From the NCBI GenBank assembly GCA_012729055.1, contig JAAYDW010000056.1, forward strand, positions 5,691-69,690: a stretch of 64,000 bases of DNA, written 5' to 3'. The position numbers and the translations under genes are program-made. Source of the stretch: Deltaproteobacteria bacterium. GTDB taxonomy: Bacteria > Desulfobacterota > Syntrophia > Syntrophales > Smithellaceae. Shown here piece by piece: positions 721-63,166 of the stretch (the first letter of the stretch is position 1; each line of letters opens with the position of its first letter). Below the pieces are notes generated by a model. That model saw nothing but the letters and a program-made list of their open reading frames with translations, was not told the DNA's origin and searched no databases.

Positions 721-742
721 CCCTCTCCCACGTGGGAAGAGG

Positions 743-784: not shown

Positions 785-832
785 GGGTGCAGCTCGTAGC
801 TCGTCGCTGAACGTAGGCATATTACGGAATGT

Positions 833-2019: not shown

Positions 2020-2026
2020 GGATGCC

Positions 2027-12471: not shown

Positions 12472-12560
12472 TGGTGCCGAAGACTGGACTCGAACCAGCA
12501 CAGGCGTACACCCACTAGACCCTGAACCTAGCGCGTCTACCAATTCCGCCACTTCGGCAC
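12472..12560 (-). tRNA. tRNA-Leu (anticodon CAG), class II with a long variable arm and encoded CCA
   Basis: Reverse complement: GTGCCGAAGTGGCGGAATTGGTAGACGCGCTAGGTTCAGGGTCTAGTGGGTGTACGCCTGTGCTGGTTCGAGTCCAGTCTTCGGCACCA. The 7-bp acceptor stem pairs. The anticodon stem is CTAGG/TCTAG with loop TTCAGGG. The T-loop GGTTCGAGTCC is present. Confidence 0.95.
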
Positions 12561-17322: not shown

Positions 17323-18747
17323 ATGTTTAAAAAACTGCTCATTGCCGTCGGCGCTCTCATTGCGGTCATCGTCGCCGGAGTATTTGTCGCGGGCGTCATT
17401 GTTTACATGAAGGTCGATAAAGCCTTCATGGCGGCAAAAATGTCACAGGCGCTGAACCGGCAGGTCTCCATCGGAGACATCGATGCCGGCATCTTTTCCG
17501 TTGTGTCCGGCGTCGAAATCAAGAAGGTGACGATTTCCAATTTCAAAACGCCTCAGGAACTGGCCGGCTTGCAGGGGAAACCGGCGGCGGGCGACCTCTT
17601 CGCCGCAATGGAAGCGCTGCGCTTCAAGGTGAAGATTCTTCCGCTCTTCCAGCGGCAGGTCGAACTCAAGGAGCTGGTTCTGTACAGCCCGGTCATCAAC
17701 CTGTCCCGCAACAAACAGGGCGTTTTGAATATCGACGATCTCATCACATCCGGAGAGACGGCCGGCGATAAACGGCCTGCGCCGCAGGAACCGGCCCCAC
17801 CCATTTCCGCCGATGTGCTTCCGGTGGCGATTGCCGTGGGGGAAATCGGCATGAAAAACGGCACGATCAATTACCACGACGGCGAATACGACCAGAAAAT
17901 TCAGATCTACAAGCTAAACGCGCTCTTGCACGATATCCGCATCGACCCCGGGGCTCTCGAGCAGAAAAACGAAATGCAGCTTACGCTCGACATGGGCGTG
18001 AAGACGATCGGCGCTCTGAAAAACGGCAGCGTTGAAAATTTTGACGTCACGATCGACGCGGTGGGCAAGGTCATTCCCTTCGCCATCAAGACGCGGCTTC
18101 TGGACCCGGAAGTTCTTTTGCATGTTTCTCTCCCCGAGGGTGAAATCACCGGTCTGCAGATTTTCAACGCCTTTGCGTCTGTGCCTGTTTTGGGGGATTA
18201 CCTGGGCCGGCATCTTGCTTTTCTGAAGGAGAAGCAGCAGTGGAAAGGTTCAAAACTAAACAGCCTGGATCTGCGCTACAAGGCGCCGCAGGTAGCCGTT
18301 CAAAACGGCAAACTGGAGCTTAAAGACGCAGGAATATCTTTTGACGGCATCATGAACACGAAGACGCAGGCCGTTGATATGAACCTGGGCGTTTTGCTGA
18401 AGAAGGAAATCAACGACGCCGTCAGGGCGTCGCTTGCCAAACAAATTGAAGCGGCCATTCAAAACCCCGAGGTCAGAAAATACGCCGATTCGGGAAAGCT
18501 TGCCGATCTGGCGATGCAGCCTCTTTTCAACAAAGACGGCCAAATCGATTTAAAAGCAAAAATCGGCGGCACCGCCAAAAAGCCGGAAGTGAAACTGACG
18601 CGCCCGCAACTGGGATCTCTCGGCAATTTCGCTAAGGACAATGCCGGGGGCCTGGCGCTCGAAGCGGGCAAAGACGCAGCCAAAAAACTCCTCCGGGAAG
18701 ACCGGCAAAAACTTCTGGAAGATGTCGGCAGCCTGTTGAAAAAGTAA
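17323..18747 (+). CDS. AsmA-family envelope protein
   Basis: N-terminal transmembrane anchor (LLIAVGALIAVIVAGVFVAGVIV) followed by a long beta-rich periplasmic region with AsmA-like N-terminal wording (LNRQVSIGDIDAGIFS). An AAAGGGGG RBS is present. Confidence 0.65.
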   Translation: MFKKLLIAVGALIAVIVAGVFVAGVIVYMKVDKAFMAAKMSQALNRQVSIGDIDAGIFSVVSGVEIKKVTISNFKTPQELAGLQGKPAAGDLFAAMEALRFKVKILPLFQRQVELKELVLYSPVINLSRNKQGVLNIDDLITSGETAGDKRPAPQEPAPPISADVLPVAIAVGEIGMKNGTINYHDGEYDQKIQIYKLNALLHDIRIDPGALEQKNEMQLTLDMGVKTIGALKNGSVENFDVTIDAVGKVIPFAIKTRLLDPEVLLHVSLPEGEITGLQIFNAFASVPVLGDYLGRHLAFLKEKQQWKGSKLNSLDLRYKAPQVAVQNGKLELKDAGISFDGIMNTKTQAVDMNLGVLLKKEINDAVRASLAKQIEAAIQNPEVRKYADSGKLADLAMQPLFNKDGQIDLKAKIGGTAKKPEVKLTRPQLGSLGNFAKDNAGGLALEAGKDAAKKLLREDRQKLLEDVGSLLKK

Positions 18748-18958: not shown

Positions 18959-20446
18959 TTATTCACCCCAATTGGTTTTGCCGCTGCAGCGGTCCAGCTC
19001 CTGATCCATCCAGGGAAGAATCTTTGCCGCGGGAATCTTGTAAGTGGGGCCGATGTAGGAACAGTCGTTGAACCAGTAATACGGCGGAATCGTCATGGAG
19101 ATTTTCTGTTCCGCCGGAGGAACGTATACGCTGACGCCCAGGTCCATGATCGCTTTATGGTCGCAGGCTCTTATCTTCACAACTTTTCCATTGACATAGC
19201 GGTAAGTGTCTCCTTCCCAGATTTTGATGATCTTTTCCGGATCGGTGCTCTTGGCCCGTTCCATGACGCTCAAGAGCCAGTAGGTTTGCATCAAGACGGA
19301 AACGCCGTTGCCGAAGGCTCCGACATTCCGGACGGATTCTGTGTCGTAAGGCGCCTTCCAGTTTGCCGACACCTTTTTCCAGATTTGATAGTACTTGGCA
19401 TAGGATGGTGAGGACTTAAAGGGATCGGGCATATCGAAGGAATCGACCCGAACGAATCCCTTGGTGCCTTCCACGCCGATATTCCGCAGCATCGCGACAT
19501 CGTTCATGAAGATGTTGGCAAAAGGAATATTCAGCTTCATTTCATAAGCCTGTTTCGCAAGATTGGCTCCATCAGGAAGAAAGTCGCCTGACAATATAAT
19601 GTCGGCGCCTGAAGCTTTGACCTTGGTCAGATATGGCGCAAAATCCGTCAGGAAGAGCTTATGGTAGTCTTCGCCGACAATCTGACCCTCGGGATGATAT
19701 TCCTGGAGGCCTTTTTTGAAAGCGGCGGCAAGAGCGCGGCCGTAACTGTAATCCTGGTTGAGGATATAGAACTTCTTTTCCTTTTTGCTGATCTGGCCGA
19801 AATAGTAAGCTAGGGCGCGCCCGGATTGTTCGACGGAGTAATAGGAATGGAAAGCATAACGCGAGAAGTTTTTTGCATCCTGCAACTCATCCACCATGGA
19901 GCCGAGATTGACGGAGATAATCTTATACTTATTCGCCGTTTCATTCATGATCTTGACATGGTGGCTGCCGTCGCTGCCGATAAAGGCATGGACCTTTTCC
20001 TGTAAAGCCATCCGTTCGCATACCTTTTTGCAGGTATCCGGCTTGCCCAGATGATCGGCCTTGATGACCTGGATGAGTTTTTTCTTGCCGTCGACCCAGA
20101 TGCCGCCGCGCTTGTTGATATCGTGCGCCACCCATTGGACCAGCGTGTAATACCACAGACCCTGAATCGAAGCCGGTCCTGAAAATGAAACGACGACGGC
20201 CAGTTTGATGGTGTCTCCCGTGGGGACGACGGAGGTGCCGGGATCGTAATCGGACATATCGCTCATCTTATTCACGTCAAAAGCGTCGTTGGGTTTGGCC
20301 GCCCACTGGTCGAGCGGATCCGTTTTTGCAGGCTTTGCCTTCTTGTCCGCTTTGGCTGCGTCGACCGTAAAAGGGCAGTAGGCAACGATCAGGAAAAAAG
20401 CGAGAACGCACGAAAAAATAAACCTTCCTTTTGCAAACTTTTCCAT
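18959..20446 (-). CDS. Periplasmic substrate-binding protein, type-1 PBP (LivJ/branched-chain or aromatic-acid binding family)
   Basis: 495 aa with a signal peptide. The body is typical of Leu/Ile/Val-type binding proteins. A GAAGGAGGAAG RBS is present. No permease or ATPase genes lie adjacent. Confidence 0.8.
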   Translation of the reverse strand: MEKFAKGRFIFSCVLAFFLIVAYCPFTVDAAKADKKAKPAKTDPLDQWAAKPNDAFDVNKMSDMSDYDPGTSVVPTGDTIKLAVVVSFSGPASIQGLWYYTLVQWVAHDINKRGGIWVDGKKKLIQVIKADHLGKPDTCKKVCERMALQEKVHAFIGSDGSHHVKIMNETANKYKIISVNLGSMVDELQDAKNFSRYAFHSYYSVEQSGRALAYYFGQISKKEKKFYILNQDYSYGRALAAAFKKGLQEYHPEGQIVGEDYHKLFLTDFAPYLTKVKASGADIILSGDFLPDGANLAKQAYEMKLNIPFANIFMNDVAMLRNIGVEGTKGFVRVDSFDMPDPFKSSPSYAKYYQIWKKVSANWKAPYDTESVRNVGAFGNGVSVLMQTYWLLSVMERAKSTDPEKIIKIWEGDTYRYVNGKVVKIRACDHKAIMDLGVSVYVPPAEQKISMTIPPYYWFNDCSYIGPTYKIPAAKILPWMDQELDRCSGKTNWGE

Positions 20447-34821: not shown

Positions 34822-34900
34822 ATGCCGGCCCCCTGCCGTATTTTTACCACAGGCGGCGCAGAAGGTCAGCCATTTTTAAACGCCGCCGCGGCAAGAAAAG

Positions 34901-36010
34901 ATGACAGCGATTTTGACTTGTGATAAGTACAGCGTCATGAACGTCAATATGAATATGAACAAGGACAAGCTCATCCTGTTTTTCCTGGCGGTCCTGGCCG
35001 TGATTGCCGCCGGTTTCGTGCTGAAGCTCGCCAAGCCGGTGATTCTGCCGCTCGCGATCGCCTGGCTTTTGACCTTTGTGGTGGGGCCCGCGGTCAATGC
35101 GATGACGCAGCGGAAGATTCCCCTGCCGATCGCCATCGCGGTCGTCATGCTTTTTCTGTGCGGCGTCGTTTTCCTCGGCGTCTTTTTTCTGTACGGCCGG
35201 GTAGTCACCATTGTGACCGAGTTTCCCAAGTATGAAGCCAGATTCGTTCAGATCGGCAACGAACTGAATGCTCTGTTTCCCTTTCAGTACAACTTCCTCG
35301 CCGATTTTTCCTGGAGGGACTCGGTGCACGATACGCTGGCCGGCCTGCCGGGGTCGTTCTTCACCATCCTGTCGAACCTGGTGATGGTCATGATTTTCCT
35401 GGCCTTCCTGCTGGCGGGAAAACCGTACGTCAAGCACAAGATGGATCACGCGCTCTCCGAAAGGCGGGCGGCGCAGATGAAAAAAATCGTCGGTTCCATC
35501 TCCTTCGAAATCAGCCGGTATCTCTGGGTCATGGTGATCATCAGCCTGACCACGGGCGTCCTGATCTGGTTCGCCTTGTCCCTCATCGGCGTGGACTTTC
35601 CCGTGACGTGGGGCGCGCTCGCCTTTTTCTTCAACTTCATTCCCACGATCGGTTCCATTGTCGCCTCTCTTCCGCCGATTCTTCTGGCCCTGGTCCAGTT
35701 TTACCCTGCGATCTGGCCGGGCATAATTACGCTGGTCGTCATTGCCGCCATTCAGATGACGATTGGAAACTTCATTGCGCCGAAAGTTCTGGGCGACCGT
35801 CTGCATTTGAGCCCGGTGGTCATTTTGATTTCTCTTTTGTTCTGGGGTTGGCTGTGGGGCATTGTCGGAGCGCTCCTGGCCGTGCCGATTGCCTCGGCCA
35901 TCAAGATTGCCTGCGAAAACATCGAAGAGCTGCATCCGATTGCCATCATGATGGGATCGGGCCGGCGCTTCTGGAAGGAACACCGGAAAGCTAAAAAGAG
36001 CGACCATTGA
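34901..36010 (+). CDS. AI-2E family transporter (PerM/YhhT-like permease)
   Basis: Polytopic membrane protein. The conserved C-terminal block FWGWLWGIVGALLAVPI is typical of the family. The start is uncertain: 34901, or ATGs at 34937-34952. Confidence 0.8.
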   Translation: MTAILTCDKYSVMNVNMNMNKDKLILFFLAVLAVIAAGFVLKLAKPVILPLAIAWLLTFVVGPAVNAMTQRKIPLPIAIAVVMLFLCGVVFLGVFFLYGRVVTIVTEFPKYEARFVQIGNELNALFPFQYNFLADFSWRDSVHDTLAGLPGSFFTILSNLVMVMIFLAFLLAGKPYVKHKMDHALSERRAAQMKKIVGSISFEISRYLWVMVIISLTTGVLIWFALSLIGVDFPVTWGALAFFFNFIPTIGSIVASLPPILLALVQFYPAIWPGIITLVVIAAIQMTIGNFIAPKVLGDRLHLSPVVILISLLFWGWLWGIVGALLAVPIASAIKIACENIEELHPIAIMMGSGRRFWKEHRKAKKSDH

Positions 36011-36072
36011 CCGGACCATCCGGCAACAACCGGTATGAGGAAGTGCCGCCGGAGGCGAAAAGGAGAAGTTCC

Positions 36073-36498
36073 ATGAAAGAAAAAATCATTTGCTTTGCGC
36101 TGGGGCTGTCCGGCGGAGATATCGAAAAAGGCAAGGCGTCTTTCGGGCAGATGAACGAAGGAACGCACGAGCTCGACGTGATTGCCGTAAGCGATGCCAT
36201 GCTGGCCGCGACGGTTGAGGAAGCGCTCGGTCAAGCGGACAGAACGAAAGGCGGGCAGACCCCGGTTCTTTCCGGAAATCGGGTGGTCATGGTGAACACG
36301 CAGGAGCGTCCGCTGGTTTTGCAGGTGCTTAGAAGCTTCAAGGCCGTGCTGTCCGACCCGCAGGACCTGATCTTTGCCGTCATCACCGATACGGCCCGGA
36401 CCTGGACATTTGGCGAGTATCTCGGGCATCTCAAAAGGGAGCATGAATATCTGAAAACCCACCGCCCGGAAAACGAGCCGGATATGAAACGGATGTAA
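36073..36498 (+). CDS. Hypothetical protein (possibly DUF3783-like)
   Basis: An AGGAGA RBS precedes the ATG at 36073. 141 aa with coding-like composition. The family guess is weak. Confidence 0.55.
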   Translation: MKEKIICFALGLSGGDIEKGKASFGQMNEGTHELDVIAVSDAMLAATVEEALGQADRTKGGQTPVLSGNRVVMVNTQERPLVLQVLRSFKAVLSDPQDLIFAVITDTARTWTFGEYLGHLKREHEYLKTHRPENEPDMKRM

Positions 36499-36607
36499 CG
36501 CATGCGGACGTTTTTCGAGGCCCTTGACAAGAGCCGAAACGTTTTCATTTTATAAACCATGGGACAAAAGATGCCGGTTTCGCCGGACCGTCCGGGAGGT
36601 TTTGAAA

Positions 36608-37096
36608 ATGAAGAGTCGGAGTTTGAGAAACACTTTGCGCTGTGGACTCGCGGGCGCGGTTCTTTTTTCGCTTGTGGGCTGCGCCGGCTTCAATATCATC
36701 AAAGAACAGGCGGTGCCCGACATTCCCCCCGGACCGTACCGGCACATCATCAGGCTCTATAATCCTGAAGGCGAGCCGGAAAGGTCGCTGGCCGGTCTGG
36801 TGATTTCAACGGGGAGTGCGACCGTCTGTTCGGATTATCCGCGCGAAATTATCATTAAAAGTCTGGACGAACTGCCGTTGATGGAAAAGAAAGCTTTTCC
36901 CTATTTCAACAACTACGTGATTCGGGACAAGGAAGAGATCGTGGGATACGTTTCCCTGGAGATCGGATACCGGACGGTTGTCTGGCGCACGGCAAAAGAC
37001 CCCGAGTGCGCTTATCGGGCGCAAATCGTTCTGCCCGATCATGTCTGGCTGAGCGGCAAACATCACGACGCCGACCAAAGCGGGATCAACTGGTAG
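36608..37096 (+). CDS. Hypothetical lipoprotein
   Basis: Signal peptide with the lipobox LVGC (MKSRSLRNTLRCGLAGAVLFSLVGCAG). Confidence 0.6.
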   Translation: MKSRSLRNTLRCGLAGAVLFSLVGCAGFNIIKEQAVPDIPPGPYRHIIRLYNPEGEPERSLAGLVISTGSATVCSDYPREIIIKSLDELPLMEKKAFPYFNNYVIRDKEEIVGYVSLEIGYRTVVWRTAKDPECAYRAQIVLPDHVWLSGKHHDADQSGINW

Positions 37097-37254
37097 CCGC
37101 GCAGCATCTTCCGGCGGCCCACCGCTGCGGGCGCTCACCTTTTTTTCAACTTAAATTCTTGAAACATCAGAACAGTTTTGATACGCTTCGCCGCACAATT
37201 TTGTGCCCTGTACAAAATCGTGCTTCAACAGCTTGAACAGAAAGGACGATTTCC

Positions 37255-39375
37255 ATGCAATTTACTGAGCGCGTTTTTTGCGGCCGGCTTGCGCCCCAGG
37301 ACGTCGGCCGCCGCGTGCTTTTGGCCGGGTGGGTGGACGCCTTCCGGGATCACGGCGGCCTGCTTTTTCTTCATCTGCGCGACCGCAGCGGCATCATGCA
37401 GATTGTCTTCAGTCCCGAAGTCGCCTCCCCGGAGGTCTGCCGGCAGGCGACGGCCCTGCGCGCCGAGTACTGCATCGCGGCGGCGGGCGTTGTTCGGCAG
37501 CGTCTCGCCGGAACGGAAAACCCCAACATCGAAACGGGATCCATCGAGGTGTTCGTGACGGAGCTTGAGGTGCTTTCCGAATCCGACGCCCTGCCCTTTT
37601 CCGTTTCCGACAAGGCGATGGTGGCGGGCGCTCCGTCGGCCGGCTCCGACGCGGTGGCCGAGGATCTGCGCCTTCAGTACCGGTATCTGGACATCCGCCG
37701 TCCCGCCATGCGCGACAATCTGGTGGCGCGCCACCGCATTTTTCAGTGCGTCCGCGAATTTCTCGACTCCCGGGGCTTTGTGGAAGTCGAAACGCCGATG
37801 CTCACGGCCAGCACGCCCGAAGGCGCGCGCGACTACCTGGTGCCCAGCCGCGTCCATCCGGGAAATTTCTACGCCCTGCCCCAGTCGCCGCAACTGTTCA
37901 AGCAACTGCTGATGATCGGCGGTCTGGAGCGCTACTTTCAGCTCGCGCGCTGCTTCCGAGACGAGGACCTGCGCCCCAACCGCCAGCCGGAATTCACGCA
38001 GCTCGATATCGAAGCGTCGTTCATCGATGAAGAGTTCCTCTTCGAACTGATCGAAGAGCTGACCGTCCGGATGTTCGCAATCGGCGGCATCGAACTGGCG
38101 CGGCCCTTCGTGCGGATGACGTACGCGGAAGCGATGGACACGACCGGCTCCGACCGGCCCGATTTGCGCTTTGGGCTGCGCTTTGTCGACGTCACGGATG
38201 TCTTTGCCGAAACCCGTTACGCGATCTTCCGCCAGATTCTGCAGCGCGGCGGCTGCATCAAGGGCATCAACATCCAGGGCCAGTCCGAAAAACTGAGCAA
38301 GAACGTTTTGCAAAACGAATACGCCCGGGAAATCGCGCCGTCGTTCGGCGCCAAAGGCATGACCTGGATGCGCGCCGAAGGCGGAAAGCTCGAATCCAAC
38401 ATCGTCCAGTTTTTCAGCGAGAAGGAACTGGAGGAATTGCAGCGCCGCTTTGCGGTTGCCGACGGAGACGTACTCATCCTGATTGCCGATCCTTCCTATG
38501 CGGTGGTGACCTCCGCGCTGGGCCAGCTTCGTCTGCACCTGGCGGGCCGTCTGGGGCTCATTGCCGAAAACAGCTTTTACCCGGTCTGGATCACCGAGTT
38601 TCCGCTTTTTGAGCCCACGGATGAAGGAGGCGTCACCTCGAGCCATCATCCGTTCACCGCGCCGGACCGCGAGGACTTCGATCCGAAAAATATTGAGGAA
38701 CTGCTTTCGCTCAAGTCCCGCGCCTACGATCTGGTCATGAACGGCGAGGAGCTGGGCGGCGGCAGCATCCGCATCAACAACCGCGACCTGCAGCGCAGAA
38801 TTTTTGCCGCGCTGGGGCTTTCGGAAGAAGAGACGCGGGAGCGATTCGGCTTCTTTCTGCGGGCGTTCGATTTCGGCGCGCCGCCGCATGGCGGACTGGC
38901 GCTGGGCATGGACCGCACCGTGTCGATGATCCTGCAGACGCCGTCGATCCGCGAAGTGATCGCGTTTCCGAAAAACCGCAGCGCGGCCTGCCCCCTGACC
39001 GGGGCGCCCTCGACGGTCAAGCGCGAGCAGCTGGCCGAACTGGGGCTGCTCGATTTGGGCGGCAAAGAAGCGCTGCCGGGAACGGCGGAAAAGGAAGACC
39101 CGATTGATTACCTCTCCTGGGTGTCGCGCATCGGCATCTCCGCCGCGGAGCGTCCCGTAATGGAGGAGATCCTCGCCGGGGCCGCTGCGCTGGCCCGTCT
39201 GGCTGAAGAAAATGCGGGGCCGGAAGAGCCGATCTACACCGTGGCGGCCGTGTCCAACCGCATGCGGCCGGGCACAAAGGAGCAGCGCTCGGAATTCGCC
39301 GCAAACGGCCGGTTCCTCAAAAGCGCTCCCGCGGTCAAGGGAGATTACTTCAAAGTCGCCAGCATTCTGGAATAA
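37255..39375 (+). CDS. aspS: Aspartyl-tRNA synthetase with a C-terminal GatC domain fusion
   Basis: Class II AspRS body: OB-fold N-terminus, FRDEDLR, GGGSIR, and the motif 3 region GLALGMDR. About 110 extra C-terminal residues read as GatC (see findings). Confidence 0.9.
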   Translation: MQFTERVFCGRLAPQDVGRRVLLAGWVDAFRDHGGLLFLHLRDRSGIMQIVFSPEVASPEVCRQATALRAEYCIAAAGVVRQRLAGTENPNIETGSIEVFVTELEVLSESDALPFSVSDKAMVAGAPSAGSDAVAEDLRLQYRYLDIRRPAMRDNLVARHRIFQCVREFLDSRGFVEVETPMLTASTPEGARDYLVPSRVHPGNFYALPQSPQLFKQLLMIGGLERYFQLARCFRDEDLRPNRQPEFTQLDIEASFIDEEFLFELIEELTVRMFAIGGIELARPFVRMTYAEAMDTTGSDRPDLRFGLRFVDVTDVFAETRYAIFRQILQRGGCIKGINIQGQSEKLSKNVLQNEYAREIAPSFGAKGMTWMRAEGGKLESNIVQFFSEKELEELQRRFAVADGDVLILIADPSYAVVTSALGQLRLHLAGRLGLIAENSFYPVWITEFPLFEPTDEGGVTSSHHPFTAPDREDFDPKNIEELLSLKSRAYDLVMNGEELGGGSIRINNRDLQRRIFAALGLSEEETRERFGFFLRAFDFGAPPHGGLALGMDRTVSMILQTPSIREVIAFPKNRSAACPLTGAPSTVKREQLAELGLLDLGGKEALPGTAEKEDPIDYLSWVSRIGISAAERPVMEEILAGAAALARLAEENAGPEEPIYTVAAVSNRMRPGTKEQRSEFAANGRFLKSAPAVKGDYFKVASILE
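39100..39372 (+). other. gatC: GatC-like domain (about 91 aa) at the C-terminus of the aspS ORF
   Basis: PIDYLSWVSRIGISAAERPVMEEILAGAAALARLAEENAGPEEPIYTVAAVSNRMRPGTKEQRSEFAANGRFLKSAPAVKGDYFKVASILE aligns by eye along its whole length with canonical GatC (e.g. ...VEHIANLARLQISPEE...GVEPTYHVLDLQNVLRED...LKNAKETEDGQFKVPTIM). Confidence 0.75.
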
Positions 39376-39391
39376 AGGGAGACGTCATTTC

Positions 39392-40585
39392 ATGGATTCC
39401 ATTTTTTTCTACCGCAACCCCGCCGCCGCCCCGACGGACGGCCCCCTGGCAGGGTTGAAAATCGCCGTTCAGCCCGCTGTCTCGGTGGCCGGCTGGCCCG
39501 CCGACGCGGGATCCAAAGCCCTGGCCAATTTTACGGCGCTTGAGGACGCAACCGTTGTGAGCCGGCTTGTCCAGTCCGGCGCTTTTATCTGCGGCTCGAC
39601 CCTCGGCAGTGAATTCGGCTTCGGCCTTGCCGAAAGCCGCGCGGGCGAAGCCGTCAAACACAACATCGCCGCTGCGGAGCTGATGCTCGACATGATGGGC
39701 GAAAGCCGCCTGGCCGCTTGCGGCGCGGGCGTCTGCGGCTTCAAGCCCGGCTACGGCCTGGTGTCGCACTTCGGTCTCATCGGCCTTATTCCGTCTATGG
39801 AAGTCTGCGGCCTCTTGGCCGGTTCGTGCCAGACGATCCGGCATCTGCTTCGGGCCCTGGCCGGTCCCGACGATAAGGATTTCTCGCTTCCCGACGAAAA
39901 GCCCGGAGAGTTTTCCGCGCCGGCGCCGGAGCCGTCGAAGACGACGATCGGCGTCATTGCCGAAGCGCAAAGCGCTCTTCCGGATGCGGAGAAAAGCAAA
40001 TTTCGCGCCTCCGTCGCGGCGCTGCAAAAAGCGGGCTTTGCCGTCCGGGAGGTCTCCTTTCCCGACTGGCCGTTGTTTTTGCCGGTGCATAAAATCGTCG
40101 GCTCGGTGGAGGCGTCTTCCGCCGCAGGGCGCTACGACTCGGTCCGCTACGGCGAGCGCGCGCCGGGCGCCAGAAACTGGAACGAGATGTACCTGGCGTC
40201 CCGCGGCGCGGCATTCGGCACGCTTTTGAAAAGCTATCTGATTCAGGGCGCGTATTTTCAGTTTCAGCGCTACGACGCTTATGAAAACGCCTGCCGCATC
40301 CGCGCGCGTCTGGTCGCAGACATGAAGAAGCTGACGGATGCGGTCGATTTTCTCGTCCTTCCGGTTTCCGGCGGCGCCTCCGAAGAGCGTCCGGGGACGC
40401 TCGACGAAACCTACGGGCGGTTTGCTGCGACGGCGTTTGCCAACGTCACGGGCCAGCCGGCGCTGGTTCTGCCGCCCGCCTCCGCGGCGGAAGCGCCCTT
40501 TCAGCTGGCGGGGCCGAGGCTGGGCGACGCGGCGCTTTTGGCGCTGGGCGATTTTCTGCTGTCTGTGCGCGAGAAAGGAAAATAG
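39392..40585 (+). CDS. gatA: GatA-like amidase-family subunit, N-terminally short and with a degenerate amidase signature
   Basis: The C-terminal two thirds are GatA-like (FKPGYGLVSHFGLI, VEASSAAGRYDSVRYG, NVTGQPALVLP). Its position between the gatC domain and gatB also fits. Length is 397 aa, versus about 485 aa as I recall for typical GatA. Confidence 0.75.
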   Translation: MDSIFFYRNPAAAPTDGPLAGLKIAVQPAVSVAGWPADAGSKALANFTALEDATVVSRLVQSGAFICGSTLGSEFGFGLAESRAGEAVKHNIAAAELMLDMMGESRLAACGAGVCGFKPGYGLVSHFGLIGLIPSMEVCGLLAGSCQTIRHLLRALAGPDDKDFSLPDEKPGEFSAPAPEPSKTTIGVIAEAQSALPDAEKSKFRASVAALQKAGFAVREVSFPDWPLFLPVHKIVGSVEASSAAGRYDSVRYGERAPGARNWNEMYLASRGAAFGTLLKSYLIQGAYFQFQRYDAYENACRIRARLVADMKKLTDAVDFLVLPVSGGASEERPGTLDETYGRFAATAFANVTGQPALVLPPASAAEAPFQLAGPRLGDAALLALGDFLLSVREKGK

Positions 40586-40587
40586 GA

Positions 40588-42015
40588 ATGGACTTTGAAG
40601 CGGTCATCGGATTGGAAATCCACATTGAACTCAACTGCAAAACCAAAATGTTTTGCGATTGCCCCAACCGTCCCGGCGACGATCCCAATCTCAACACCTG
40701 CCCGACCTGCCTGTGGCTGCCGGGCGCGATTCCCCGGTTCAGCGCCGAGGCGCTGGAAAAGGCGTCGCTTCTGTGCCTGGGGCTGGGCGCCGAGCTCCAG
40801 CCGCAAAGCGCCTTCGACCAGAAGGTATACTACTATCCGGATCTGCCGAAGGGCTACCAGTTGTCGCAGGCCCGCAGGCCTCTGTCGTGCGGCGGCGGCA
40901 TCGACATTACCGACGAAGACGGCAATCTGAAAAGGCTGCGCATCCACCACATTCACATGGAAGAGGACGTCGCGAAGCTGGTGCACGAGCTGGAAGGCCG
41001 CGTGCCGATCAGCCTGGTGGACTTCAACCGCGCCGGCGCCCCGCTGGTGGAAATCGTGACGGAGCCGGATTTGCGCACGCCGCATCACGCCATGGAGTTT
41101 CTGAAGGCGCTGCGTACGCAGGTGCGCTACGTCGGCTCTTCCGAGTGCAGCATGGAAAACGGATCGATGCGCGTCGACGCGAACATTTCCGTTCGGCCCC
41201 GGGGCACCAGCCAGATGAACACGAAAGTGGAAGTCAAGAACATGAATTCCGTCCGCCATGTGGGCGACGCCATCGCTTACGAAATCAGCCGCCAGAGCCA
41301 GGCGGTGCAGGCGGGCGAGGCGGTCGTGCTGCACACGCGCCTGTGGGATCCGGACAAGAAAGTCACTCTGCCGATGCGCGGCAAATTCGAAGGCCCGTGT
41401 GTTCCCGACCCGATGGTGCCGGTTATTGAACTGTCGCCCGCCTTTATCGACGAGATGCGCTCGCGCCTGCCGGAGATGCCGGCCGCGCGGGCCGAGCGCT
41501 TCGTGAACGACTACCGGCTCACCGGCGAGGAAGCGGCGTTTTTGAGCGCCGATCCGGACGTCGCCGGCTTTTTCGAGGCGCTCGTCAAAAAAGGCGTCGC
41601 GCCGCGCACGGCCATGCACTGGCTTGCCACGCAGCTCATTCCGGCCGTGAAAGAACGCAGGCTGGAGCTCGGCGCGTCGCGGGTGACGCCGGAGCGCCTG
41701 GCGGCGCTCCTTGCCCTGCTGGCCAAAGATGAAATCAACGCCAACGCGGCGCGCGAAGTTCTCGCGCATCTGTTTGAAAGCGACGAGACGCCGGAAGCGA
41801 TCGTGAACGCGCGGGGCTTCAAACAGGTGTCCGACGCAGGCGCGCTGGCGGCGATGATCGACAAAGTCCTTGCCGGGCAGCCGGCGGCTGTGGCCGATTT
41901 CCAAGCCGGCCAGGGAAAAGCCCTGGGCTTTCTCATCGGCCAGGTGATGCAGTCCTCCGGCGGCAAGGCCAATCCGAAAATTCTCCGGGAGCTGCTGATG
42001 AAAAAGCTGGGGTAA
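40588..42015 (+). CDS. gatB: Asp/Glu-tRNA amidotransferase subunit B
   Basis: MDFEAVIGLEIHIELNCKTKMFCDC, DFNRAGAPLVEIVTEPD and NMNS. The C-terminal YqeY-like tail is present. Length is 475 aa. Confidence 0.95.
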   Translation: MDFEAVIGLEIHIELNCKTKMFCDCPNRPGDDPNLNTCPTCLWLPGAIPRFSAEALEKASLLCLGLGAELQPQSAFDQKVYYYPDLPKGYQLSQARRPLSCGGGIDITDEDGNLKRLRIHHIHMEEDVAKLVHELEGRVPISLVDFNRAGAPLVEIVTEPDLRTPHHAMEFLKALRTQVRYVGSSECSMENGSMRVDANISVRPRGTSQMNTKVEVKNMNSVRHVGDAIAYEISRQSQAVQAGEAVVLHTRLWDPDKKVTLPMRGKFEGPCVPDPMVPVIELSPAFIDEMRSRLPEMPAARAERFVNDYRLTGEEAAFLSADPDVAGFFEALVKKGVAPRTAMHWLATQLIPAVKERRLELGASRVTPERLAALLALLAKDEINANAAREVLAHLFESDETPEAIVNARGFKQVSDAGALAAMIDKVLAGQPAAVADFQAGQGKALGFLIGQVMQSSGGKANPKILRELLMKKLG

Positions 42016-42084
42016 GGAATCGTCGGATCGGGGCAGGCGCAACCGGACACGCAGGATAAGCGCGGCGGTTCAGGAAACATCACG

Positions 42085-42120
42085 GGGCTTTCTCCGGTCG
42101 GAGAAGGCCCTGTTTGTTTT
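42085..42120 (+). terminator. Rho-independent terminator after gatB
   Basis: GGGCTTTCTCCG-gtc-GGAGAAGGCCC followed by TGTTTGTTTT. Confidence 0.75.
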
Positions 42121-42138: not shown

Positions 42139-43014
42139 TTAACCGGCTGAGGCTTGCGCCTGGGCCGCGTGGTAGGAGCTGCGCACCAGGGGGCCGGCTT
42201 CGACGTGCTGAAATCCTCTGGCGCGGGCGATTTCCCCCCATTCGGCAAATTCGTCGGGCGTCCAGTAGCGGGCGACCGGCCAGTGCCGAAGCGTCGGCTG
42301 CTGGTACTGCCCGATGGTGAGGCGCGCGCAGGAGACGGATGCGAGATCGTCGATCAGGCGTAAAATATCCTCCCGGGTTTCACCGAATCCCACCATGAAA
42401 CCGCTCTTGGCGAGGACAGGCGAAAGGGCGACGCGCGAAAGCAGGTTTAGCGACCGGCGGTAGTCGCCCTGCGGCCGCAGACGGGGGAAAAGCGCCTCGG
42501 CCGCCTCCAGATTGTGATTGATCACGTCCGGCCGCGCCGCGATGACCGTCTCCAGGGCGGACGCGTCGCCGGCGAAGTCGGGAATCAAAACCTCAATGCG
42601 GCAGCCGGGAACGGACTGGCGCAGCCGTGCGATGGTGTCGGCAAAAAAACCCGCGCCTCCGTCGGGCAGATCGTCGCGCGTCACGGACGTGACGACGACG
42701 TAGCAGAGCTTCATCTGCAAAACGGCGGCAACGAGGCGGTCGGTTTCGCCGGCGTCGATCTCCTGCGGACGGCCGTGCGCGACATTGCAGTAGAGGCAAT
42801 GGCGCGTGCAGACCCGGCCGAGAATCAGAAACGTCGCGGTTCCGCTCGCAAAACACTCGGCCAGATTGGGACAGGCCGCCTCCTGGCAGACCGTGTGCAG
42901 GTGCAGGTCGCCAAGCGTCCGCCGGATTCGGCGGCAGCCGTCGGCGTAAGGCGGACGGACCTTGAGCCAGGGCGGTTTGCGCAACAGGGACTGCGGAGTT
43001 TGTTGATTTTCCAT
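42139..43014 (-). CDS. lipA: Lipoyl synthase
   Basis: CQEAACPNLAECF and the radical SAM motif CTRHCLYC. The start is placed at MENQQTPQSLLRKPPWLKV. The upstream part of the long ORF is Arg-rich and overlaps gcvPB. Confidence 0.9.
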   Translation of the reverse strand: MENQQTPQSLLRKPPWLKVRPPYADGCRRIRRTLGDLHLHTVCQEAACPNLAECFASGTATFLILGRVCTRHCLYCNVAHGRPQEIDAGETDRLVAAVLQMKLCYVVVTSVTRDDLPDGGAGFFADTIARLRQSVPGCRIEVLIPDFAGDASALETVIAARPDVINHNLEAAEALFPRLRPQGDYRRSLNLLSRVALSPVLAKSGFMVGFGETREDILRLIDDLASVSCARLTIGQYQQPTLRHWPVARYWTPDEFAEWGEIARARGFQHVEAGPLVRSSYHAAQAQASAG

Positions 43015-43061
43015 GGGAACACCGGCCGATTGACGAAAGCGCTTGCGCGCCTTGATTCTTT

Positions 43062-44510
43062 CTACGCTTTGGGTTTGCTCCAGCAGACGTCCGGCTTGCG
43101 GGCGGCCAGGACTTCGTCCAGGCGGCCGACCGGCGTGGAAAGAGGCGCGTCCTTCACGCGCTGCGGATTTTCCTCCGCCTCCCGGGCAATGGCCGCCATG
43201 GCGTCGCAAAAGGCGTCGAGCGTCTCTTTGCTTTCCGTTTCCGTAGGCTCGATCATGATGGCTTCCGCGACGATGAGCGGAAAGTAAATCGTCGGCGGGT
43301 GGTAGCCGAAATCGATCAGGCGCTTGGCGATGTCGGTGGTGTGCACGCCGCTCAGGGCGACCTGCCGGCTGCCGGAAAAGACGCATTCATGCATGCAGAT
43401 GCGGTCGTAGGGCAGATCGAAAGAGGGCTTAAGCTTCTCCTTGATGTAGTTGGCGTTGAGGACGGCCATTTCCGCGGCGCGGATCAGCCCGGCGGCGCCG
43501 AGCGACCGGAGATAGCTATAGGCTTTGACGATGACGGAAAAGTTTCCGTAAAAGGCGCGGACCCGTCCGATCGTATCCGGAAAGTCCGACGACCAGCGCA
43601 GTCCCGCCTCGCAGGGAACGATGCGGGGCACCGGAAGAAAGTCCGTCAGTTTTTCCCCTACGCCCACCGGGCCGCTGCCCGGGCCGCCGCCGCCGTGCGG
43701 CGTGGAAAAGGTTTTGTGCAAATTGAGCTGGATGACGTCGAACCCCAGGTCGCCGGGGCGCGTCTTGCCCAAAAAGGCGTTGGCGTTGGCGCCGTCGCCG
43801 TAGAGCAGTCCGCCCCTGTCGTGGACGACCCTGGCCACTTCTTCGATGTTGCGCTCGAAAAGGCCGAGCGTGTTGGGATTGGTGAGCATCAGGGCCGCGA
43901 CGTCTTCCGTCATCAGAGCGTCCAGGCGCCGAAGATCGACGCCGCCTTCAGCGTTCGAGCCGAGCGTGACCGTTTCGAATCCGCAAAGCGCGCCGGAAGC
44001 CGGATTGGTGCCGTGGGCCGCGTCGGGAATCAGAATCCGCCGGCGCTTTTCACCTTTTTTCTCGAAGTATTTCCGGATCATCATGACGCCGGTGAGCTCG
44101 CCGTGTGCGCCGGCCGCGGGCTGCAGCGTAAAATCAGCCATGCCGAAAATAGCGCACAAGAGCCTCTGCATGTCGAAGAGGAGCTCCAGATTGCCCCGGG
44201 CAAAAGCCTCCGGCGCGGCCGGGTGCAGGCCGGTGAAGCCCGGAAGCGCCGCGACGTTTTCGTTGATTTTGGGGTTGTATTTCATGGTGCAGGACCCGAG
44301 CGGATAAAAGCCGAGATCCACGCCGAAGTTCCGCCGCGACAGACTGGTGTAGTGGCGCACCAGGTCGGTTTCGGAGACTTCCGGCAGGTCCAGCTCTTCG
44401 CGCATAAACGACGCGCCAATGACGTCCTCAAGAGAGACGGCCGGAACGTCGCCCGCCGGAACATCGGCGGCGGCGCGGCCGGGTTTGCTTATTTCAAATA
44501 TCAGTTGCAT
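43062..44510 (-). CDS. gcvPB: Glycine dehydrogenase (decarboxylating) subunit 2
   Basis: 482 aa. The PLP-lysine region [16 protein letters not shown] is present. Confidence 0.95.
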
Positions 44511-44533
44511 GACTGTTCCTCAGGCCTGAATTC

Positions 44534-45862
<1,329 letters not shown>

Positions 45863-45864
45863 GA

Positions 45865-46263
45865 TCAGTGCTTTTCCTCTTGCAGGAGTGCGTCGTATTC
45901 GTCGGCGGAAAGCAGGCTTTTCAACTCGCCGGGATTATCCGGTTTTACAATGGCGATCCAACCTTCGCCGAAGGCGTCCGCATTGACGAGCTCGGGGTTG
46001 TCTTCGAGCCTGGTGTTGACATCCAGCACTTCGCCGCCGACCGGAGCGTACACATCGGAGACGGATTTCACGGATTCGACGACGGCCAGCGGCTCGCCCT
46101 TGACGACCTTCTTGCCGACGGCGGGCAGTTCCACGAAGACGATGTCGGTCAGCATTTCCTGCGCGTAATCGGTGATGCCGACGACAACGGAACCGTTGCC
46201 TGTATCTTTGACCCATTCATGATCTTTGGAATAAAACCGGTCGGAGGGATTGAGTTTGGACAT
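45865..46263 (-). CDS. gcvH: Glycine cleavage system H protein
   Basis: YSKDHEWV and the lipoyl-lysine motif ESVKSVSDVYAPV. The start is placed at MSKLNPSDRFY. Confidence 0.95.
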   Translation of the reverse strand: MSKLNPSDRFYSKDHEWVKDTGNGSVVVGITDYAQEMLTDIVFVELPAVGKKVVKGEPLAVVESVKSVSDVYAPVGGEVLDVNTRLEDNPELVNADAFGEGWIAIVKPDNPGELKSLLSADEYDALLQEEKH

Positions 46264-46285
46264 TACGAAATCTCCTTGAAAAAAA

Positions 46286-47377
46286 TTATTTTTGCCTTTT
46301 GTAGAAGGGAAGAGGAACAATTCTGGCCTGGCTCCTGATCTCCCGGATGGCCACTGCTATTTCCGTACCCGGTTCACTGTGCCGGATATCGACAAACGCC
46401 AGGCCCACCGCTTTCTGGAGCGTCGGGGAAAAAGTGCCGGAGGCGACCGAGCCTATCGGTGTTTGAGCTTTCAGGACCGGATAGCCGTGGCGCGCAATGC
46501 CGCGGCCGGTCATTTCGAAGCCGACGAGCTTGCGCCGGATGCCCGCGTCGCGAACGGCCGCCAGCGCGGCCTTGCCGGCGAAGTCCTTTTTCCAGTCCAC
46601 CAGCCAGCCGTACGGCACTTCCAGCGGGTTGGTCTCCTGGGTGATGTCCTGGCCGTTGAGCATCATGCCCGCCTCCAGGCGCAGCGTGTCCCGGGCGCCC
46701 AGGCCCGCGGGCTTGAGGCCGCGAGGCGCGCCCGCCGCCAGAAGCGCATCCCAGATTTCACCCGTGCTTGCCGCGTCCGCGTAAATTTCAAAACCGTCTT
46801 CGCCGGTGTAGCCGCTGCGCGAGATGACAGCCGGAATGCCCGCCACCTGCGACCGGATGAAGTGATAAAAGCGGAGCGCCGGTAAATCCGCGCCGGTAAG
46901 CTTTGCCAAGACGGCCGCCGCCGCCGGACCCTGCACGTCGAGCTTGCCCGTCTTGTCGCTGATGTCGGCAATCCGGAAGTCGAACCCTTTTGCTTTGCCC
47001 AGAGCCGTGATCCGCTCCAGATCCGCTTCGCGCGTCGTGGCGTTGGTGACGAGCCAGTAGGACTCCTCCGCCATCTTGTAAACGGTAAGATCGTCGATGA
47101 TGCCGCCGCGGTCGTTGAGGAGCGCGGAAAGCTTGACCTGGCCTGTCGTCTGCCCGGCCAGATCGCGCGTCAGGGCAAACTGGAGCAGATCGAAGGCCTG
47201 CGGGCCGCACACTTCGATTTCTCCCATGTGGCAGATGTCGAACAGCGCCGCGGCGCTCCGGGTCGTTTTATGTTCATCGATGACGCTGGTGTACTGGACC
47301 GGCATGGCCCAGCCGCCGAAGTCGATGATTTTCGCGCCACAGGCGACGTGTTTTTCGTACAGGGGCGTTTTTTTCAT
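46286..47377 (-). CDS. gcvT: Aminomethyltransferase (glycine cleavage T protein)
   Basis: MKKTPLYEKHVACGAKIIDFGGWAMPVQY, the canonical GcvT N-terminus. Length is 363 aa. Confidence 0.95.
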   Translation of the reverse strand: MKKTPLYEKHVACGAKIIDFGGWAMPVQYTSVIDEHKTTRSAAALFDICHMGEIEVCGPQAFDLLQFALTRDLAGQTTGQVKLSALLNDRGGIIDDLTVYKMAEESYWLVTNATTREADLERITALGKAKGFDFRIADISDKTGKLDVQGPAAAAVLAKLTGADLPALRFYHFIRSQVAGIPAVISRSGYTGEDGFEIYADAASTGEIWDALLAAGAPRGLKPAGLGARDTLRLEAGMMLNGQDITQETNPLEVPYGWLVDWKKDFAGKAALAAVRDAGIRRKLVGFEMTGRGIARHGYPVLKAQTPIGSVASGTFSPTLQKAVGLAFVDIRHSEPGTEIAVAIREIRSQARIVPLPFYKRQK

Positions 47378-49516: not shown

Positions 49517-50932
49517 ATGGATGAAAAACGAAGAGCATTGCTCAAGGGACTTCCGAAAATCGACGAGGTGATCGGCAATCTGGAAAAGAAAGGCATCTAC
49601 GAAAAAGCGTCGCGGGAAATCGTTCTGGAGACCTGCCGCGACGTGGTGCAGAAGCTGCGCAATGCGATTCTCACCGCGCCGGACAAGCAGCTGCCTGTTC
49701 TGTCTGCGGGCGTGGAGGCGGCGTCCCGCAGCGTCGGGGCGCGCATCGACGATCTGCGCCGCTGCAAGCTGCGCCGTCTCGTCAACGCCACGGGCGTGAT
49801 CCTGCACACCAACCTCGGCCGCGCGCCCCTGTGCGCCGAAGCGATGGAGCGCATTGCGGAAGTGGGACGGGGCTACTCCAACCTGGAGTTCGACCTCGTC
49901 CGCGGCGAGCGCGGCCTGCGCTACGACCACGTGAACCGGCTCCTGTGCGCGCTCTGCGGCGCCGAAGACGCGCTCATCGTCAACAACAACGCGGCCGCCG
50001 TCCTGCTGGTGCTGAACACGCTCGCCGAGCACAAGGAAGCGATCATTTCGCGCGGCGAGCTCATTGAAATCGGCGGCGAGTTCCGCATTCCGGAGGTCAT
50101 GTCCAAAAGCAACTCCATCCTGCGCGAGGTGGGCACCACCAACCGCACGCATCTTTCGGACTACGAAAAAGCCGTCGGTCCCGCGACCGGCGTCATTCTC
50201 AAGGTGCACACGAGCAACTACAAGATCATCGGCTTTACCGAGGACGTCGATCTGCTGCCGCTGGTGGCGCTGGGCAAGCGCCGCGGTGTTCCGGTTTACG
50301 ACGATCTGGGCAGCGGCTGCCTTATCGATCTGGACGCCTACGGCCTGGCGCATGAACCGACCGTCCGCGAAGTGCTTGCCACCGACGTCGATGTCGTGAC
50401 ATTCAGCGGCGACAAGCTTTTGGGCGGGCCGCAGGCGGGCATCATCGTCGGGAAAAAGGAGGTGATCACCCGCATCAAAAAAAATCCCCTCAATCGCGCC
50501 CTGCGCATCGACAAATTCACGCTGGCCGCCCTGGAGGCGACACTGCTGCATTACCTGATTCCCGAAAACGCCCCCCGCACCCTGCGCGCGCTCAAGGCGC
50601 TGACGGAGCCGCTGGCGGACGTCAAAAAGCGGGCGCGCCGGCTTTTGGCGAAGCTGAAAAAAGCGGGCCTTCCCAACCTGGCGTATGACATGTACGAGGA
50701 CGTGGCCGCCGCCGGCGGCGGATCACTTCCGACGGAGGATATTCCGACGGCGGTGGTGGCGGTCCGGCACGCCAAGATGACGGCCAGCCGAATGGAAGCG
50801 GCGCTGCGCCGCGCGCCCGTGCCGGTCATCGTCCGCGTGGATGAAAACGAAATCCTGATCGATCTGCGCACCGTCGCCGAAGATGAGTTTGACCTGGTCG
50901 TGGACGGCCTTGGCAGTCTTGCTGAAGCGTAA
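49517..50932 (+). CDS. selA: L-seryl-tRNA(Sec) selenium transferase
   Basis: LPKIDEVI N-terminus, VNATGVILHTNLGRA, and the PLP-lysine motif FSGDKLLGGPQAG. Length is 471 aa. Confidence 0.9.
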   Translation: MDEKRRALLKGLPKIDEVIGNLEKKGIYEKASREIVLETCRDVVQKLRNAILTAPDKQLPVLSAGVEAASRSVGARIDDLRRCKLRRLVNATGVILHTNLGRAPLCAEAMERIAEVGRGYSNLEFDLVRGERGLRYDHVNRLLCALCGAEDALIVNNNAAAVLLVLNTLAEHKEAIISRGELIEIGGEFRIPEVMSKSNSILREVGTTNRTHLSDYEKAVGPATGVILKVHTSNYKIIGFTEDVDLLPLVALGKRRGVPVYDDLGSGCLIDLDAYGLAHEPTVREVLATDVDVVTFSGDKLLGGPQAGIIVGKKEVITRIKKNPLNRALRIDKFTLAALEATLLHYLIPENAPRTLRALKALTEPLADVKKRARRLLAKLKKAGLPNLAYDMYEDVAAAGGGSLPTEDIPTAVVAVRHAKMTASRMEAALRRAPVPVIVRVDENEILIDLRTVAEDEFDLVVDGLGSLAEA

Positions 50933-59083: not shown

Positions 59084-59635
59084 TTACTTCCGTTCTTCCG
59101 TCAATTGCCCTTTCAACAGGCGAAACGTTCTTGCGGTCCGTGTTTTGGGACAGCAGGAGGGATCCTTCGGTCCGTGGGTGTCGTAATCGACCAGGATTTT
59201 TCCAGACCGGATCCGCAGGGCATGAATTTTTATCCGGTCGCCCAGCACGATGGAATTGCTCTGGCGGATCGTCGGGTCCGAGGGCTTTGTGTAGAGCGCG
59301 GTCAGTTCAAAAAAACTGCCGCTGCCCATGGGAGAGGCGGCCAGGACCACGGCGGCGTCGTTTAGACGGTCTTTGTTCAGGTCTCCCACGCAATACTTCA
59401 TCAGCCGAACGCTCAGAAAATCCTCGGGCGTTTTTCCCGTCTGAAAAAAACCGTTTTTCAACGGCGCCTGCCTTTTGGCAAACGCCAGGTCGTAGCGGTA
59501 ATTTTTCAGTGTCCCGGCCGCGACGCCGGATCCGGCGTCCGCCCGCGCCGCACAAAAAACCAGCGACAGCAGACAGCCCAAACACAGCAGCGCGCAAAAC
59601 GTCCGCTGCTCATTCGACGGAGGCGATGCAGACAT
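59084..59635 (-). CDS. Hypothetical secreted protein
   Basis: Signal-peptide-like N-terminus (FCALLCLGCLLSLVFCAARA). I recognise no family. The start is placed at MSASPPS, overlapping the upstream gene end by 26 nt. Confidence 0.5.
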   Translation of the reverse strand: MSASPPSNEQRTFCALLCLGCLLSLVFCAARADAGSGVAAGTLKNYRYDLAFAKRQAPLKNGFFQTGKTPEDFLSVRLMKYCVGDLNKDRLNDAAVVLAASPMGSGSFFELTALYTKPSDPTIRQSNSIVLGDRIKIHALRIRSGKILVDYDTHGPKDPSCCPKTRTARTFRLLKGQLTEERK

Positions 59636-61058: not shown

Positions 61059-61108
61059 GCGTAAGCTCTCCTTCCTGCGGGCGGCGCGAGCGTCACCCTT
61101 TCTGCTCC

Positions 61109-63001: not shown

Positions 63002-63166
63002 AAACATCCTCCCGGCGGGAATGGTTCAGGACAATAACCATATTGCATTATTCTCCGTCATCTGCTTAAAAAAGCAGTGTCAAGCTACCAGAAGCTAAGC
63101 CGGGATTCAATATGAAAAGACGGGGGGCTTCCGTCCGCGGAGCTCTCCCTCCAGAGAGGAGTCAAG

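Follow-up and report, generated by a model that had tools for sequence, protein, structure and literature searches.

Asparagine transamidosomes, in which an aspartyl-tRNA synthetase (AspRS) of non-discriminating type, an amidotransferase (AdT) of the GatC/A/B type and tRNAAsn act together so that Asp-tRNAAsn stays unreleased, are known as non-covalent assemblies, both stable and dynamic (PMC3367201). Here, we describe a locus that may encode a covalently tethered assembly of this kind, found in a 64,000-nt stretch of DNA from a member of Smithellaceae (Deltaproteobacteria bacterium, contig JAAYDW010000056.1; the whole stretch is referred to below as the window), where aspS fused in frame with gatC (aspS::gatC, 37255..39375, + strand) is followed by a gatA-derived gene, designated gatA', and by gatB. 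The components are the same as in the Asn-transamidosomes of Thermus thermophilus (3KFU, stable), Pseudomonas aeruginosa (4WJ3) and Helicobacter pylori (dynamic), and the logic is presumed to be the same (PMC3367201); GatA', GatB and AspRS of the window are each nearest to chains of these known complexes. In the latter, separate polypeptides are held together largely via tRNA and GatA is an active glutaminase, whereas in the window AspRS and GatC form one chain and the catalytic triad of GatA' is absent. We propose, with a probability of about 0.68, that aspS::gatC, gatA' and gatB constitute one operon building a constitutive Asn-transamidosome, with free ammonia as the probable source of amide nitrogen.

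Comparison with canonical GatCAB, represented by the structures from Staphylococcus aureus (2DF4/2F2A) and Aquifex (3H0L), gives a similar picture of likeness and departure. GatC is required for the folding of GatA and for the GatA-GatB complex, while GatA works by means of a Ser-cisSer-Lys triad with Ser178 as nucleophile (PMC2330236). GatB of the window is of canonical type, GatA' is predicted to share the GatA fold, and the tail of the fusion aligns with canonical GatC from end to end, N-terminal helices and C-terminal 'AP..G.YFKV..IL' motif included; GatC of canonical complexes, however, is free-standing, and Lys, cis-Ser and Ser of their GatA correspond to Gln, a deletion and Glu in GatA'. 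Yeast mitochondrial GatFAB resembles the locus in having a non-standard GatC-type subunit with an extra domain modulating GatA, and NH4Cl lets its transamidation bypass the glutaminase (PMC4027206), but the extension of GatF is an N-terminal scaffolding peptide rather than an aminoacyl-tRNA synthetase, and its GatA is active. Pieces of AdT joined to a synthetase or to each other are known from GlnRS of Deinococcus radiodurans, which bears a C-terminal YqeY/GatB-like domain, and from the mutational gatC-gatA fusion of Mycobacterium smegmatis (PMC1865053, PMC7541841). Unlike the fusion described here, the first places a GatB-derived tRNA-binding domain on an enzyme of the direct pathway and the second is a laboratory or clinical mutation impairing fidelity, so that neither links an indirect-pathway synthetase to its own AdT. 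AtzE-AtzG of s-triazine catabolism (6C62), structurally close to GatA', combines, after divergence from GatCAB, an amidase resembling GatA with a small GatC-like subunit; AtzE, however, is catalytically active, acts on a new substrate and has neither GatB nor synthetase as a partner, whereas GatA' has lost catalytic residues and stays with GatB.

The fusion gene begins with ATG and encodes 706 amino acids (aa) followed by a stop codon, with neither stop nor frame break inside 37255..39375 according to the listing of open reading frames (ORFs) in the window; its identity is supported by matches to the NCBIfam models NF009460 and NF001750 and by more than 120 full-length homologue clusters. Its AspRS part is a complete bacterial-type class IIb enzyme. 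The models NF001750 (aspartate--tRNA ligase; 750.1 bits against a cutoff of 443, thus passing the equivalog threshold) and TIGR00459 (679.7 bits against 373.85, likewise passed) cover residues ~4-598, and solved bacterial AspRS structures (PDB chains) align over residues 7-599. Pfam delimits within this span, on the + strand, an OB-fold anticodon-binding domain (PF01336 tRNA_anti-codon, E 1.4e-13; aa 21-107, 37315..37575), a class II catalytic core (PF00152 tRNA-synt_2, E 2.7e-116; aa 136-575, 37660..38979) and the bacterial GAD insertion (PF02938, E 2.4e-17; aa 325-421, 38227-38517). Locus analyses, here and below, were made on the 80 best loci, 72 of which are complete; over these 72, mean column conservation of the AspRS body is 0.82, while that of the ~15-residue linker LLDLGGKEALPGTAE (aa ~598-612, 39046..39090, +), defined as what lies between the AspRS and GatC alignments, is 0.65, an L-P-G motif (L607, P608, G609) being kept at 70-90 %. 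The original prediction, derived from the letters of the window, had reported an aspS ORF of 706 aa, roughly 110 aa longer than bacterial AspRS, and had read it as an in-frame AspRS-GatC fusion; the surplus beyond residue 599 amounts to ~107 aa, and the fusion is confirmed by the ORF itself, by NF009460 and by the profile comparison of the tail described below.

Assignment of the tail required indirect approaches. Pfam GatC (PF02686) gives the tail alone 19.8 bits, below the gathering score of 23, and TIGR00135 gives 13.2 bits, below its cutoff of 47.1; in a comparison of the tail profile with PDB sequences the matches to GatC are weak (E 0.07 and 0.58), S. aureus GatC (2df4_C) aligning with the tail over residues 6-94. 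Since direct hidden Markov models (HMMs) stay below threshold, homology was settled by profile-profile comparison combined with exhaustive search. When the profile of tail homologues was run exhaustively against 1.84 billion representative proteins, it matched end to end free-standing proteins of 93-101 aa (library-wide E 1.8e-7 to 9e-4), which are GatC by Pfam (E 1e-10 to 1e-21). Comparison of the tail profile with these GatCs by hhalign gave a probability of 99.4 % and E 2.8e-21 over 93 collinear columns (tail residues 13-106), taking in the helical region at the N-terminus ('I(D/E)xLSxxSRIxIxxxE') as well as the 'APxxxGxYFKVxxIL' motif at the C-terminus. Homology at this level identifies the tail as full-length GatC, whose borders, supported by the hhalign, exhaustive and 2df4_C alignments, are at aa 613-706 (94 residues; 39091..39372, +). 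The estimate of about 91 GatC-like residues at ~39100-39372 made in the original prediction is thereby borne out; as to the GatC HMM check suggested there, PF02686 and TIGR00135 fail on the tail, and it is hhalign that upholds its identity. The tail is not a free-standing subunit of ~95 aa, being in frame with AspRS in 72/72 complete loci, and the closest free-standing GatC (P0161), considered as an unfused intermediate, was rejected, its context being an ordinary ligA-gatC-gatA. The exhaustive search itself is unsuitable for counting fusions: its 39 matches include one fusion of ~700 aa, because at 50 % identity fusions and ordinary AspRS fall into common clusters; a word-index search with the tail returned 11 fragments only.

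Long ORFs of this kind might arise artificially, if a stop codon were lost or a frameshift introduced by assembly or sequencing between separate aspS and gatC, a concern raised in the original prediction. Distribution of the fusion makes the probability of such an origin practically negligible. The more than 120 full-length homologue clusters, collected from NCBI, JGI, ENA and Logan, measure 705-707 aa and are 79-99 % identical at 100 % coverage; body and tail share one stop-free frame in complete loci, the length of the fusion falling within 704-708 aa in 68 of the 72. Independent assemblies, including the complete isolate genome of Syntrophus buswellii DM-2 (locus L020), thus agree in both the in-frame junction and the length, which refutes the artefact. 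In a species scan with one genome per species the tail is present in at least 111 species genomes, which belong to several orders of Thermodesulfobacteriota: Syntrophales, Syntrophobacterales and Desulfobacterales. The loci come from Smithella, Syntrophus and Syntrophaceae, to which S. buswellii belongs in our grouping, from Syntrophobacter and Desulforhabdus, from Desulfobacter, Desulfocicer and other Desulfobacterales, and from Desulfatiglans, one locus (L001) being contained in a metagenome-assembled genome (MAG) of Syntrophaceae, 96-97 % identical to the window. Many contigs bearing fusions 77-83 % identical to that of the window, which is as close as in bona fide Smithella, were also met in MAGs labelled as Dehalococcoidia, Chloroflexota, Verrucomicrobia, Pirellulaceae, Thermoleophilia, Kiritimatiellia, Competibacteraceae and others (among them L006, L009, L010, L016, L025, L026, L028, L031, L037, L039, L047, L048 and L052). 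These are likely to be mis-binned Syntrophales contigs or wrong labels, not a real spread across phyla.

The architecture is not categorically new, as it is already modelled in NCBIfam/CDD. The model NF009460/PRK12820, named 'bifunctional aspartyl-tRNA synthetase/aspartyl/glutamyl-tRNA amidotransferase subunit C', has the same domain order and matches the protein of the window end to end (residues 1-706 to profile positions 18-723) with 1345.7 bits, marginally missing the curated cutoff (1379) by 33 bits, so that the protein belongs to this family in practice. It is because of this missed cutoff that RefSeq names the window protein and most of its relatives 'aspartate--tRNA ligase'. The name of the family is itself inferred, no experimental characterisation of it having been found, and a full-text literature search, with key reviews covered in part, yielded no publication on either a natural AspRS-GatC fusion or a GatA without the triad. 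The supposition that the architecture might be undescribed therefore fails for databases and stands for the literature searched.

The locus's more surprising feature is the loss of the triad in GatA'. This GatA-derived paralogue of 397 aa (39392..40585, +), recognized by a sub-threshold match to the GatA equivalog model TIGR00132 (198.7 bits against a cutoff of 481.1, not passed), by alignment to GatA chains in PDB and by structure modelling, is without about the first 50 residues of GatA and overall ~85 residues shorter than the canonical protein. Its AlphaFold2 (AF2) model (predicted local distance difference test, pLDDT, 72.7; predicted template modelling score, pTM, 0.79) has as top Foldseek matches 3kfu_E, 3h0l_A, 4n0i_A, 2df4_A and 4wj3_A, with template modelling scores of 0.67-0.72, indicating, at the level of a predicted structure, that the GatA fold is retained. 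Alignments to 3h0l_A, 3kfu_E and 4wj3_A place Gln27 (39470-39472, +; 'IAVQPA') at the position of the catalytic Lys of 'IA(V/H)KD', reveal a deletion of the cis-Ser segment PWSLDRVPGGSSGG (GGSSGGS loop) and show the nucleophile motif 'TDTGGSIR' replaced by 'LDMMGESR', with Glu104 (39701-39703, +) at the position of Ser. Among 74 orthologues, position 27 is occupied by Q in 67, E in 4, D in 2 and S in 1, never by Lys, whereas Glu104 is found in 74/74 and Asp100, Gly103 and Arg106 are invariant or nearly so. With the Ser-cisSer-Lys triad absent, GatA' is predicted to be unable to hydrolyse glutamine by the amidase-signature mechanism; because Gln27, Asp100, Gly103, Glu104 and Arg106 are kept to this degree, its site seems to be remodelled and under selection rather than decaying. 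The label 'gatA-like' given in the original prediction was thus correct, but complete loss of the glutaminase triad had been overlooked there.

The three genes are tightly packed. A gap of 16 nt separates the stop codon of the fusion from gatA' and accommodates, as read from the sequence, a Shine-Dalgarno-like AGGGAG (39376..39381, +) 10 nt before the ATG; 2 nt separate gatA' from gatB (40588..42015, +; 475 aa), the values of 17 and 3 nt quoted earlier, with the correct gene order, being stop-to-start offsets. A terminator scan found a terminator-like hairpin of 14 pairs with a T-run (42082..42113, +) that closes the operon, while a promoter scan found no sigma-70-like promoter upstream of it. 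GatB, the kinase/transamidase subunit with a YqeY-like tail, is judged by its sequence to be canonical and intact: it passes NF004012 (555.4 bits against a cutoff of 338), contains the catalytic GatB_N domain (PF02934, residues 6-287) and the tRNA-binding YqeY domain (GatB_Yqey, PF02637, residues 328-474), and aligns with Aquifex GatB 3h0l_B over residues 3-470 with 408 bits, signature motifs being present. Wherever a locus extends far enough, a short gatA-like gene comes immediately after the fusion and gatB after that, and this three-gene unit is conserved in all 80 loci examined, with identity to the window ranging over 37-97 % for the GatA-like product (393-427 aa) and over 57-98 % for gatB. 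Flanking genes of the window, namely RNase Z, an AI-2E transporter, two ORFs, and lipA with glycine-cleavage genes, are common only to the near-identical L001; because they are not conserved, exactly three genes can be regarded as the functional unit, and conservation of these three would be expected of a transamidosome tethered covalently. The two ORFs, which lie directly upstream of aspS::gatC (36007-36498, 163 aa, and 36524-37096, 190 aa, the second with a lipoprotein-like N-terminus), have no NCBIfam match; as members of the system they were rejected, since they are kept only in L001 and are unlinked to the operon in other genomes. Neither free gatC nor a second gatA, asnS, glnS or asnA/B was found in the 64-kb window by tblastn and NCBIfam annotation of the remaining ORFs, which bears out the earlier remark that no separate gatC stands beside gatA and gatB. 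The sole tRNA gene of the window is tRNA-Leu(CAG) (12472-12558, - strand), with no tRNAAsn or tRNAAsp near the operon.

The synthetase is probably non-discriminating. Consistently, its anticodon-binding domain ranks nearest to non-discriminating enzymes (mycobacterial, P. aeruginosa and H. pylori structures 4o2d, 4rmf, 5w25, 4wj3_M and 5gro, 87-101 bits) ahead of the discriminating ones of Escherichia coli (79 bits) and T. thermophilus (71 bits). His33 (within 'RDHGG', 37351-37353, +) and Gly86, both in the OB-fold domain, are kept in 72/72 and 70/72 loci, respectively, and match the alignment of the non-discriminating P. aeruginosa enzyme; we take these two residues to be determinants distinguishing non-discriminating from discriminating AspRS. 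The physiological setting is best seen from a survey of 547 genera, where Syntrophus aciditrophicus SB is recorded with asnA 0, asnB 1, gatCAB 1, aspS 1, asnS 0 and glnS 1, and with a U1-A72 tRNAAsn (PMC4206432, Table S1). Strain SB likely shares the operon of its congener S. buswellii. If so, the operon would account for the one gatCAB set there, the fused enzyme would be the only AspRS and, with asnS at 0, would therefore have to be non-discriminating, while AdT would be needed for Asn-tRNAAsn alone, because GlnRS covers glutamine. GatC serving the Asn pathway alone can be joined to AspRS without harming the Gln pathway, which would explain fixation of the fusion in the lineage.

The mechanism we propose for the operon can be outlined as follows. 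The AspRS part, probably the only AspRS of the cell, would charge both tRNAAsp and tRNAAsn with aspartate. The fused GatC domain would wrap the GatA'-GatB interface and keep both subunits together as free GatC does, the linker tethering one GatA'-GatB unit per protomer of dimeric AspRS, so that the resulting particle would be a constitutive (AspRS-GatC)2(GatA')2(GatB)2. From the AspRS site, Asp-tRNAAsn would swing over to GatB without release, and GatB would phosphorylate it with ATP and then amidate it to Asn-tRNAAsn. The most likely role of GatA' is to support GatB and GatC structurally and to form the entrance of the ammonia tunnel; free NH3/NH4+ is the most likely form in which the amide nitrogen enters. 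Complex formation and channelling of Asp-tRNAAsn are suggested by the covalent link and by the conservation of the operon; the use of ammonia as amide donor is the least certain step. Free ammonia would be the simplest nitrogen source given GatA' without the triad, and heterotrimeric AdT is able to transamidate with 20 mM NH4Cl replacing Gln (PMC4027206).

Several points weigh against this proposal. The AF2 model of the whole 706-aa fusion is uninterpretable (pLDDT 52.5, pTM 0.37). The ranking of the anticodon-binding domain nearest to non-discriminating enzymes is suggestive rather than diagnostic. The survey row quoted above concerns S. aciditrophicus, another organism than that of the window, and some Desulfobacterales in the same survey possess asnS (PMC4206432), so that the fusion system would not be the sole route to Asn-tRNAAsn there. 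Invariant Glu104, Asp100 and Arg106 could signal new chemistry instead of a dead site. Finally, the gatA searches span the window and the flanks, and a separate glutaminase subunit is possible.

The last point leads to an explanation in which tethering occurs as proposed but the glutaminase is a canonical GatA encoded elsewhere, glutamine remaining the amide donor and GatA' being an auxiliary or regulatory paralogue or part of an alternative complex of low activity. It would agree with the universal rule of glutamine-dependent GatCAB (PMC2330236), and IMG calls GatA' 'subunit A', so that a count of one gatCAB in the survey is compatible with a second gatA. We nevertheless consider it unlikely: all loci examined show strict synteny of GatA' with fused gatC and gatB, purifying selection on GatA' is strong, its place is the one where the GatC belt needs its GatA partner, and neither the 64-kb window nor the flanks taken from 80 genomes (~800 kb) contain a canonical gatA. 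The survey, moreover, gives S. aciditrophicus one gatCAB set, two being recorded for, e.g., Clostridium acetobutylicum (PMC4206432). Far less probable is that the GatC tail, GatA' and GatB are repurposed or vestigial and do not serve Asn-tRNAAsn at all, AspRS being fused for the sake of regulation or some other tRNA-dependent amidation. GatA' indeed falls below the GatA equivalog threshold and is without the triad, and complexes derived from GatA and GatC with new functions are known, 6c62 and 6c6g being among the structural neighbours of GatA'. However, GatB scores above its equivalog threshold and has lost neither the catalytic nor the tRNA-binding YqeY domain, the AspRS body is that of a complete and highly conserved housekeeping enzyme, and in S. 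aciditrophicus one aspS without asnS makes Asp-AdT essential (PMC4206432).

Other genes of the window deserve a brief description. Less than 8 kb from the AspRS-GatC operon is selA, encoding L-seryl-tRNA(Sec) selenium transferase (49517-50932; 600 bits against a cutoff of 268), another tRNA-dependent amino-acid conversion, the presence of which means that the organism uses selenocysteine. Convergently with the operon, lipoyl synthase and a complete glycine-cleavage set (gcvPB, gcvPA, gcvH and gcvT) occupy 42139-47377 (-); the lipA ORF taken from its first start (415 aa) shares ~325 nt with gcvPB, and because the LipA match begins only at residue ~125, the real start is probably further downstream. 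The window starts inside a dsrMKJOP-type cluster (16-3211; DsrK cut by the edge, DsrJ at 833-1240 and DsrP at 1874-3211), directly followed by acetate kinase (3225-4418) and sulfoacetaldehyde acetyltransferase Xsc (4494-6257; 845 bits against a cutoff of 676), and the whole looks like a module for organosulfonate-to-sulfite respiration in a Syntrophales genome. Long antisense ORFs of 391-554 aa lying over real genes (37225-38889, 40501-42042 and 34844-36019, all -) were rejected as genes, being by-products of the 59 % G+C composition. Four large ORFs of 474-632 aa with coding-like G+C content at third codon positions (17323-18747; 18959-20446, 59610-61112 and 61109-63007, all three -) have no NCBIfam match at E <= 1e-20.

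Current annotation conceals the system. RefSeq names the fusion 'aspartate--tRNA ligase' and GatA' 'amidase family protein' or 'hypothetical protein' (in S. buswellii the proteins of the system are WP_367360460.1 / WP_367360459.1), because the cutoffs of NF009460 (1379) and TIGR00132 (481) are both missed. Pathway reconstruction will accordingly report gatC, and often gatA, as missing in these taxa, and Smithella, Syntrophus and related syntrophs may be wrongly inferred to be unable to make Asn-tRNAAsn. Transamidosomes have been investigated as non-covalent assemblies dependent on tRNA, stable in thermophiles but transient in mesophiles. Fixation of the fusion across several anaerobic orders of Thermodesulfobacteriota provides independent evolutionary evidence that proximity of AspRS and AdT is selected in vivo, and structural studies could use the aspS::gatC operon as a natural source of tethered particles. 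The choice between Gln and NH4+ as donor is a directly testable biochemical question; if GatA' is the only GatA in these genomes, it would overturn the assumption that heterotrimeric AdTs are always fed by glutamine or asparagine. A more tentative extension, to which we give somewhat less than even odds, is that the operon represents the first glutaminase-less tRNA-dependent AdT, that in Syntrophales and related Thermodesulfobacteriota Asn-tRNAAsn is made solely by the tethered particle, and that the pseudoenzyme site of GatA' (Gln27, Asp100, Gly103, Glu104 and Arg106) captures NH4+ for the old tunnel. Habitats of these organisms are ammonium-rich and anoxic. If the extension is true, Asn codons would be served from environmental ammonium and the ATP of glutamine synthetase would be saved, direct use of ammonium being a plausible adaptation for life near the thermodynamic limit.

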